The position numbers and the translations under genes were made by a program. The notes under the pieces are model-generated. The model worked only from the letters and a program-made list of their open reading frames with translations, made no database searches and was not told where the DNA came from. DNA of 321 nt. Origin: a phage. Below are positions 1-321 of the stretch, piece by piece. The stretch lies in the sequence record MW074886.1, one strand, 5' to 3'. Each line of letters opens with the position of its first letter. Within the stretch, counting starts at the first letter, position 1.

Positions 1-22
1 AATACGACTCACTAAAGGAGGT
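1..22 (+). promoter_or_regulatory. T7-type phage RNA polymerase promoter, class II-like (phi1.5-like), truncated at the 5' window edge
   Basis: Window bases 1-22 AATACGACTCACTAAAGGAGGT align to positions -16 to +6 of the T7 consensus TAATACGACTCACTATAGGGAGA. All 14 positions from -16 to -3 match; -2 is A instead of T and the initiating region is AGGAGG instead of GGGAGA, as in T7 class II promoters. The -17 T lies just outside the window. Predicted transcription start is the G at position 17. Confidence 0.9.
15..21 (+). promoter_or_regulatory. Shine-Dalgarno site for the gene 1.5-like ORF, embedded in the promoter initiation region
   Basis: AAGGAGG at 15-21, with GGAGG at 17-21 forming the first bases of the predicted transcript. 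The spacer to the ATG at 30 is 8 nt. Confidence 0.8.
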
Positions 23-29
23 ACACACC

Positions 30-119
30 ATGATGTACTTAATGCCATTACTCATCGTCATCATAGGATGCCTTGCGCTACACTGTAGTGATGACGATAT
101 GCCAGATGGTCACGCTTAA
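30..119 (+). CDS. 1.5: Gene 1.5-like micro-protein, 29 aa, hydrophobic N-terminus and acidic C-terminus, function unknown
   Basis: ORF from ATG 30-32 (tandem ATG ATG at 30-35) to TAA 117-119, 90 nt including stop. Translation: MMYLMPLLIVIIGCLALHCSDDDMPDGHA. A strong SD sits 8 nt upstream and the ORF lies directly after a class II phage promoter. Size and position match T7 gene 1.5 (29 codons) as I recall it. Confidence 0.8.
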   Translation: MMYLMPLLIVIIGCLALHCSDDDMPDGHA

Positions 120-124
120 GGAGG
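118..124 (+). promoter_or_regulatory. Shine-Dalgarno site for the downstream ORF, overlapping the stop codon of the upstream ORF
   Basis: AAGGAGG at 118-124. The TAA stop of the upstream ORF (117-119) overlaps it. The spacer to the ATG at 129 is 4 nt (CACT). Confidence 0.75.
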
Positions 125-128
125 CACT

Positions 129-321
129 ATGTGGCCCGCTTTATTATTCATCTTCGCTGCCTCCTCTCCGGCTGGAGGCTCAGTATCTCCTACTGTTACA
201 GCCATTGAGATGCCAACTCTCAGGGTATGCCAGTCAGTAGCAGAACAGCTCAAGGAGACACCAAAGCCGGGTAACGGATACGCTCAGTACACTTACAAGT
301 GCGTTGAGAAGAAGCCTAAGT
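129..321 (+). CDS. Hypothetical small protein in the gene 1.6 position of a T7-like early region, 3'-partial (continues past the window)
   Basis: ATG at 129-131 preceded by AAGGAGG; open frame through 320 with no stop (64 codons visible). Translation: MWPALLFIFAASSPAGGSVSPTVTAIEMPTLRVCQSVAEQLKETPKPGNGYAQYTYKCVEKKPK... Hydrophobic N-terminal segment followed by a polar, Lys/Pro-containing region with two Cys. Same strand as the upstream gene and tightly coupled to it. Confidence 0.7.
   Translation, partial: MWPALLFIFAASSPAGGSVSPTVTAIEMPTLRVCQSVAEQLKETPKPGNGYAQYTYKCVEKKPK

Follow-up and report, generated by a model that had tools for sequence, protein, structure and literature searches.

The closest described relative of the micro-protein analyzed here is the gene 1.5 protein of phage T7 (NP_041965; phrog_12128; PF26858), which is still without an assigned function some forty years after the T7 genome was sequenced. 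Gene 1.5 proteins are also described in T3-like phages (NP_523306, phrog_10145), and unnamed orthologs are found in Przondovirus, AP10-like and Ningirsuvirus phages, in the same slot before gene 1.6. Two published phenotypes hint at activity. These are a toxicity that is relieved by stringent-like RNA polymerase (RNAP), and repeated loss of the gene in phages without ligase.

In ligase-deleted T7, and in parallel in two T3 lines, gene 1.5 knock-outs emerged, and the authors inferred a conserved gene 1.5 function, possibly tied to DNA metabolism (PMC2696425). It should be noted that the selected knock-outs adjoin the engineered ligase deletion, and expression of downstream genes, not loss of the peptide, could be the cause. 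In a 2026 screen 53 T7 genes were cloned in pBAD33, and T7 Gp1.5 expressed alone inhibited E. coli growth (PMC13483052). Stringent-like RNAP mutants, also in a ppGpp0 background, relieved the growth inhibition by four proteins, of which Gp1.5 is one, and Gp1.5 displayed no consistent two-hybrid interaction with RelA, SpoT or RpoZ (PMC13483052). The Gp1.5 defect is described for minimal medium, in which 34 of the 53 genes are toxic; most T7 proteins show little or no toxicity in rich medium (PMC13483052). Thus the toxicity of Gp1.5 is weakly specific, given how many genes are toxic in minimal medium. The published results show that gene 1.5 is dispensable, and that its peptide is biologically active and costly in some settings.

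In design gp1.5 resembles small single-pass bacterial membrane proteins such as KdpF, AcrZ, MgtR and CydX, which bind larger membrane proteins and tune them. The likeness would be one of analogy, and consists of a length of about 30 aa, one hydrophobic helix and a short soluble tail. Searches of Pfam, NCBIfam and PDB show no sequence relationship between these proteins and gp1.5, which differs from them in being strongly acidic and phage-encoded.

Gene 1.5 and its neighborhood in the window

The stretch of DNA analyzed, termed the window, is 321 nt long. Direct reading of its start, AATACGACTCACTAAAGGAGGT, shows a T7-type promoter minus only the first T. This is the promoter phi1.5 for the phage RNA polymerase (1..22, + strand), which spans -16 to +6; the window begins one base after the first T of TAATACGACTCACTAAAGGAGGT. 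The same 23-mer is annotated as phi1.5 in phage 13a. The T7 record has “promoter phi1.5” at 7778; T7 position 7762 corresponds to window base 1 and 7778 to window base 17, the transcription start (+1, + strand) according to the T7 annotation. The first transcribed bases of the promoter include the Shine-Dalgarno sequence GGAGG of gene 1.5 (17..21, + strand), 8 nt 5′ of the ATG. The coding region (30..119, + strand) starts with the ATG at position 30 and has 29 codons and a TAA. Its translation is the 29 aa peptide MMYLMPLLIVIIGCLALHCSDDDMPDGHA, exactly as given in the original prediction.

The 119 bases from the window start to the end of this coding region display 95.8% identity with T7 7762-7880 (end of gene 1.4, phi1.5 and gene 1.5), and 96-97% identity with phages PGX1 and EFA-2. 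A DNA search found similar sequences, at 82-97% identity, in 175 phage records. The peptide has a full-length match to phrog_12128 (E 1.8e-22), with residues 1-29 aligned to positions 1-29 of the 29 in the profile, and an identical peptide has already been deposited from Shigella phage ESh3 and phage EFA-2 (P0008 in the protein collection). The earlier “gp1.5-like” assignment is thus confirmed. P0008 carries a precomputed Pfam assignment, PF26858.1, and this assignment is also precomputed on T7-like gp1.5 proteins of the collection (P0001-P0045); the Pfam-A copy searched gives no such match. That copy, which is without the PF26858 model, showed no match at E ≤ 1 and one chance match (1.9) at E ≤ 10, and searches of NCBIfam and PDB sequences with the peptide revealed no matches.

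In promoter, ribosome binding site, length and position the gene is like T7 gene 1.5, and 28 of the 29 residues are identical, the exception being I12 here and V12 in T7. In the closest relatives, PGX1, EFA-2 and C5, ligase is upstream of gene 1.5 and gene 1.6 is downstream; the window itself stops before gene 1.6. Window positions 30-119 are gene 1.5 of a Teseptimavirus (T7-like) phage, and transcripts from phi1.5 have this gene as their first cistron. Early expression, as had been proposed, is roughly right, since the gene follows the T7-RNAP promoter phi1.5 just past the early terminator TE. The gene, its family and the peptide are already known, and the reading as a membrane micro-peptide is not new either. 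For the window itself the outcome is a known gene with what is probably a chance motif, and what the analysis adds is limited to a cross-genus definition of the conserved features.

Gene 1.5 ORFs were gathered from GenBank phage records and from IMG/VR contigs, the latter reached via the neighboring gene 1.6. A degenerate DNA pattern for the tail of the peptide revealed 12 loci, at least 9 of which are on contigs also recovered via gene 1.6. Variation is in excess at the third codon position in both sets compared. The 17 unique T7-like nucleotide sequences have 10, 7 and 19 segregating sites at codon positions 1, 2 and 3, respectively, with a pooled pN/pS of 0.19, and the 28 unique Przondovirus sequences have 9, 3 and 16, with a pooled pN/pS of 0.14. 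The aa sequence of gene 1.5 is under purifying selection, and the ORF is a true micro-gene that codes for protein. A literature search found neither ribosome-profiling nor proteomic evidence for gp1.5. An RNA element was ruled out, since neither strand of the window has a match in Rfam and the codon-position pattern is of the coding type. Three overlapping ORFs, at 73-240 (+), 131-208 (+) and 116-253 (-), were set aside as mechanical, since annotation and conservation both point to the frames 30-119 and 129-321.

The second of these frames is an extra 64-codon ORF (MWPALLFIF...CVEKKPK; MWPALLFIFAASSPAGGSVSPTVTAIEMPTLRVCQSVAEQLKETPKPGNGYAQYTYKCVEKKPK) that is not gene 1.5 and that continues to the window end (129..321, + strand). 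Direct reading and alignment with PGX1 place its Shine-Dalgarno sequence, AAGGAGG (118..124, + strand), over the gene 1.5 TAA. The ORF is inserted between the gene 1.5 stop and phi1.6 and is absent from T7, in which gene 1.5 is directly followed by phi1.6 and gene 1.6. In PGX1 the stop codon of the extra ORF is the TAA that begins the phi1.6 promoter; thus the cassette fits exactly between gene 1.5 and phi1.6. Close copies are found only in PGX1, EFA-2 and C5. Homologs with 46-53% identity are present in Ningirsuvirus and in a few other phages; in both Ningirsuvirus genomes that were inspected they follow gene 1.6. The homologs begin with a normal signal-peptide-like MKALLFIL and have two conserved cysteines, from which the product may be a small exported disulfide protein. 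Pfam and NCBIfam contain no match for it. The record of “Enterococcus phage EFA-2” (MT350293.1) names Enterococcus faecalis as the host, a label that looks doubtful; the genome is of the T7-like Studiervirinae type and is 96% identical to the window.

Architecture of the micro-protein in five phage groups

Five groups have a micro-ORF in the same slot, past ligase and the early terminator TE and immediately before gene 1.6. In four of the five a phage promoter immediately precedes it and contributes the Shine-Dalgarno sequence from its transcribed bases; the arrangement present in the window is also found in T3-like, Przondovirus and AP10-like phages. Representative peptides are MMYLMPLLIVIIGCLALHCSDDDMPDGHA (T7-like), MWLILFAIVATLGLMVADDNIWPDC (T3-like), MSINLILIIVFILAAIVWSMNDEPPKGA (Przondovirus, Klebsiella phages), MDNILYLYLFLILLMVITYPDDNWPET (Yersinia phage AP10 group) and MSALHVAYIIAIILTIVLAWALNDDDDDSGGPPTGHATHY (Ningirsuvirus). 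A 561-base Przondovirus query covering the slot and gene 1.6 detected similar DNA in 386 records. The family alignment is headed by a 40-aa Ningirsuvirus member, and identity to this first row is 23-46% overall and 23-44% for the T3-like, Przondovirus and AP10-like peptides. When the five-group profile was used to search 5.8 billion proteins, T7-like, T3-like, Przondovirus and Ningirsuvirus members were recovered with E values of 6.6e-11 to 3.7e-3.

The gp1.5-type peptides are 25-41 aa long, mostly 25-30, and 76 of 83 unique peptides have an N-terminal apolar segment of 16-20 aa. In the five representatives the apolar run has 16-17 residues, begins within the first six, and has a negative summed insertion free energy; none of the five displays a basic residue in the first seven positions. 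The tail in all groups has acidic residues and then a proline, which is the sole invariant column besides Met1. The motif can be described as an acidic run, then proline, then G-H-A or G-A. Thus the conserved feature across the five groups is an architecture, an apolar N-terminal segment plus an acidic tail with a proline. The T3-like, Przondovirus, AP10-like and Ningirsuvirus orthologs share with T7-like gp1.5 the apolar helix, the non-basic N-terminus and the acidic-then-proline tail, but differ in having no helix cysteine and no lipobox.

In the window, codons 1-17 (MMYLMPLLIVIIGCLAL; 30..80, + strand) encode the apolar segment, a predicted transmembrane segment on the basis of hydropathy and pattern of variation. 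Residues 1-17 are the longest run free of D, E, K, R, N, Q and H, with a mean Kyte-Doolittle value of 2.55, and the uninterrupted hydrophobic stretch noted in the original prediction is therefore real. The summed Hessa-2005 dG of these residues is -1.5 kcal/mol, and that of the apolar runs of the orthologs -2.9 to -4.3, on a heuristic scale and not from a trained predictor. Substitutions at positions 1-17 in the T7-like set are nearly all among L, I, V, M, F and A. However, a run of 17 residues is short and contains Pro6 and Gly13, which counts against the segment as a membrane anchor. Two metagenomic T7-like variants, P0026 and P0037, have two extra Ile in the helix (…LLIIIIIVGC… and …LLIIIIIIGC…), and thus the apolar segment can be two residues longer. 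To judge by its composition, and by how well that composition is conserved, membrane insertion of gp1.5 is the most likely outcome.

Codons 18-29 (HCSDDDMPDGHA; 81..116, + strand, with Cys19 at nt 84-86) encode the acidic, proline-containing tail. Its net charge is -4, in keeping with the acidic tail described earlier, and there is no K or R in the entire peptide. In the 83 unique peptides, 319 acidic residues are C-terminal to the apolar run and 3 are N-terminal, and of the basic residues 29 are C-terminal to the helix and 1 is N-terminal. The mainly C-terminal position of the basic residues leans, by the positive-inside rule, to a cytoplasmic tail. However, the membrane potential can push short tails outwards when they are strongly acidic, as in insertion of the Pf3 and M13 coat proteins. 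The orientation cues therefore conflict, the basic residues favoring a cytoplasmic tail and the strongly acidic tail allowing an outward one.

Several variants of the slot and of the tail were also observed. Dickeya phage JA10 and Klebsiella phage NahiliMali (L107 1081-1203, L108 1080-1205) have a gp1.5-like ORF of 40-41 aa before a gene 1.6 homolog, annotated only as hypothetical, with an apolar helix and then NDDDDD-SGGPPTGHATHY. Just before this ORF is another, of 67 aa and with two hydrophobic segments, and thus the slot collects small membrane proteins. In Salmonella phage Vi06 (L003 1531-1635) gene 1.5 has 34 aa with a deviant tail, …DHDDTQVVMLNTTH; a close relative of Vi06, CHRF_10025, keeps …DHDDTPDGHA, and the Vi06 tail looks like a frameshift or sequencing error. 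In Przondovirus (L054, L057, about 1108-1200; P0049, P0050) the gene 1.6 Shine-Dalgarno sequence is provided by the final codons of the micro-ORF, AAA GGA GCA TAA. One-base indels in the A/G run alter the C-terminus of the peptide or fuse the frame into the gene 1.6 region.

Possible roles of gp1.5

The reading that we consider rather probable, from sequence features, is that gp1.5 is a non-lipidated single-pass inner-membrane micro-protein with the acidic tail as effector and with an accessory role. Residues 1-17 would form one transmembrane helix, for whose insertion no classical signal peptide would be needed. At the membrane surface, the conserved acidic tail with its proline (DDD-M-P-D-G-H-A) would meet a partner from the host or the phage. 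The role would be that of an accessory, non-essential middle (class II) protein. A “single-pass membrane micro-peptide” was one of the two forms originally suggested, and it fits the conserved apolar N-terminal segment and acidic tail. Superinfection exclusion and an effect on the envelope, which were suggested along with it, find no support in the present analysis.

A more specific form of this reading is decidedly speculative. The Studiervirinae gp1.5 proteins would serve as acidic tails anchored in the membrane, and would bring a basic partner to the inner membrane, either the very basic gene 1.6 product or a component of the phage replication machinery. The T7 DNA-replication machinery reads acidic C-terminal tails, those of gp2.5 and gp4. 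If true, recruitment by the tail would tie DNA metabolism to the membrane, and would explain both the adjacency of genes 1.5 and 1.6 in five groups and the parallel loss of gene 1.5 in ligase-deficient T7 and T3.

Alternatively, gp1.5 may be a non-specific membrane-damaging peptide of the type I toxin or holin-like kind, which would build up in the inner membrane, lower membrane potential or ATP in host shut-off and have no specific partner. In size and hydrophobicity the peptide is like the TisB, Ibs and ShoB-type toxins, an analogy that would suit this role. Loss of the gene is beneficial when phage DNA metabolism is slowed, as expected if a damaging peptide shortened the productive period. 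However, gp1.5 is anionic, unlike the cationic-amphipathic pore-forming toxins, and the conserved tail motif and the invariant Gly in mid-helix argue for a defined contact. The growth inhibition on over-expression would agree with membrane damage, but RNAP alleles suppress the minimal-medium defect, contrary to simple membrane damage, and in the screen most T7 proteins have little or no rich-medium toxicity (PMC13483052). We regard this alternative as unlikely.

A role at the level of translation should also be considered, in which gene 1.5 is a leader or coupling ORF. Translation of the first phi1.5 cistron would deliver ribosomes to the next start, with the peptide as a by-product. The phi1.5 transcript always has gene 1.5 right at its 5′ end, and the transcribed bases of the promoter contain the Shine-Dalgarno sequence of the gene. 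The gene 1.5 stop codon overlaps or abuts the next Shine-Dalgarno sequence or start, as seen in TAAGGAGG (this window), AAAGGAGCATAAACCATG (Przondovirus) and TAAGGAGAC (T3). The knock-outs in ligase-deleted phages could likewise be regulatory. Nevertheless, the pN/pS values of 0.14-0.19 are those of selection on the aa sequence, and the apolar-plus-acidic design is kept across five groups despite the 23-46% identity to the Ningirsuvirus row. In T7 the phi1.6 promoter is between genes 1.5 and 1.6, and therefore coupling is not needed there. Moreover, the plasmid-expressed peptide inhibits growth by itself (PMC13483052). A leader function thus appears quite improbable.

The lipobox-like motif

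Codons 11-14 (ATC ATA GGA TGC; 60..71, + strand) encode I-I-G-C, with Cys14 at nt 69-71. The motif matches [LVI][ASTVI][GAS]C, as originally proposed, and is preceded by uncharged residues; LMPLLIVIIGC also fits the PROSITE lipoprotein pattern in its core part. Bacterial lipoprotein signal peptides (PROSITE PS51257, G+LPP; phage o-spanins) have in common with gp1.5 the four residues of the lipobox core and the uncharged residues ahead of them. They differ from gp1.5, which has no K/R n-region, has its Cys at position 14, and does not conserve this Cys.

The original prediction considered a minimal lipoprotein precursor. Residues 1-13 would be a signal peptide, Lgt would lipidate Cys14, and cleavage by Lsp would place an acidic 16-residue lipopeptide, CLALHCSDDDMPDGHA, into the envelope; Leu at +2 would sort it to the outer membrane. 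Very small lipoproteins exist, such as the entericidins and phage o-spanins. The motif appears in only 1.7% of shuffles of residues 1-17, and in 57 unique T7-like peptides position 14 is Cys in 49, Tyr in 5, Phe in 2 and Ser in 1, with an invariant Gly before it. These points favor a lipoprotein.

The variation at position 14 and the surroundings of the motif argue against it. The shuffle frequencies, 1.7% for residues 1-17 and 2.4% for the whole peptide, also make the match no more than mildly unusual, and a chance origin is not remote. Cys14 is replaced by Tyr in the cultured phages IME390, Vi06 and CHRF_10025, and five more peptides from the database have Tyr, Phe or Ser in its place; these non-Cys forms, 8 of the 57 in all, have differing sequence backgrounds and look like repeated events. 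The apolar segment contains no Cys in the T3-like, Przondovirus, AP10-like and Ningirsuvirus orthologs, and hence no lipobox is found in these four groups. Gly13 is invariant among T7-like peptides even where Cys14 has been lost, and is therefore not conserved for the sake of a lipobox. The PROSITE accessory rules call for K or R among residues 1-7 and for a Cys within positions 15-35; in gp1.5 the Cys precedes this range, and 0 of the 57 T7-like variants have K or R in the first 7 residues. The absent positive n-region and the mere 13 residues before the Cys had already been pointed out as atypical, correctly. The G+LPP lipoprotein pattern similarly demands R or K ahead of the hydrophobic core (PMC13068155), and no T7-like peptide has one preceding the motif. 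The basic residues of the family are C-terminal to the helix, the opposite of a signal peptide, and a cytoplasmic tail would put Cys14 in the wrong leaflet for Lgt and Lsp.

The lipoprotein reading is thus unsupported, as Cys14 is not conserved in homologs, an outcome that the original prediction had itself named as a refutation, and is very improbable. Of the features on which the original prediction turned, the acidic tail is kept in all five groups, and the two cysteines vary; position 19 in the 57 T7-like peptides is Tyr in 24, Phe in 17 and Cys, a minority, in 16. IIGC is probably a lineage-specific coincidence in a hydrophobic sequence that happens to contain Gly-Cys. With the lipoprotein idea removed, experiments are directed to the conserved helix and the acidic proline-containing tail. 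Within the T7-like phages, where Cys14 is kept in most variants, this residue may have a lineage-specific role.
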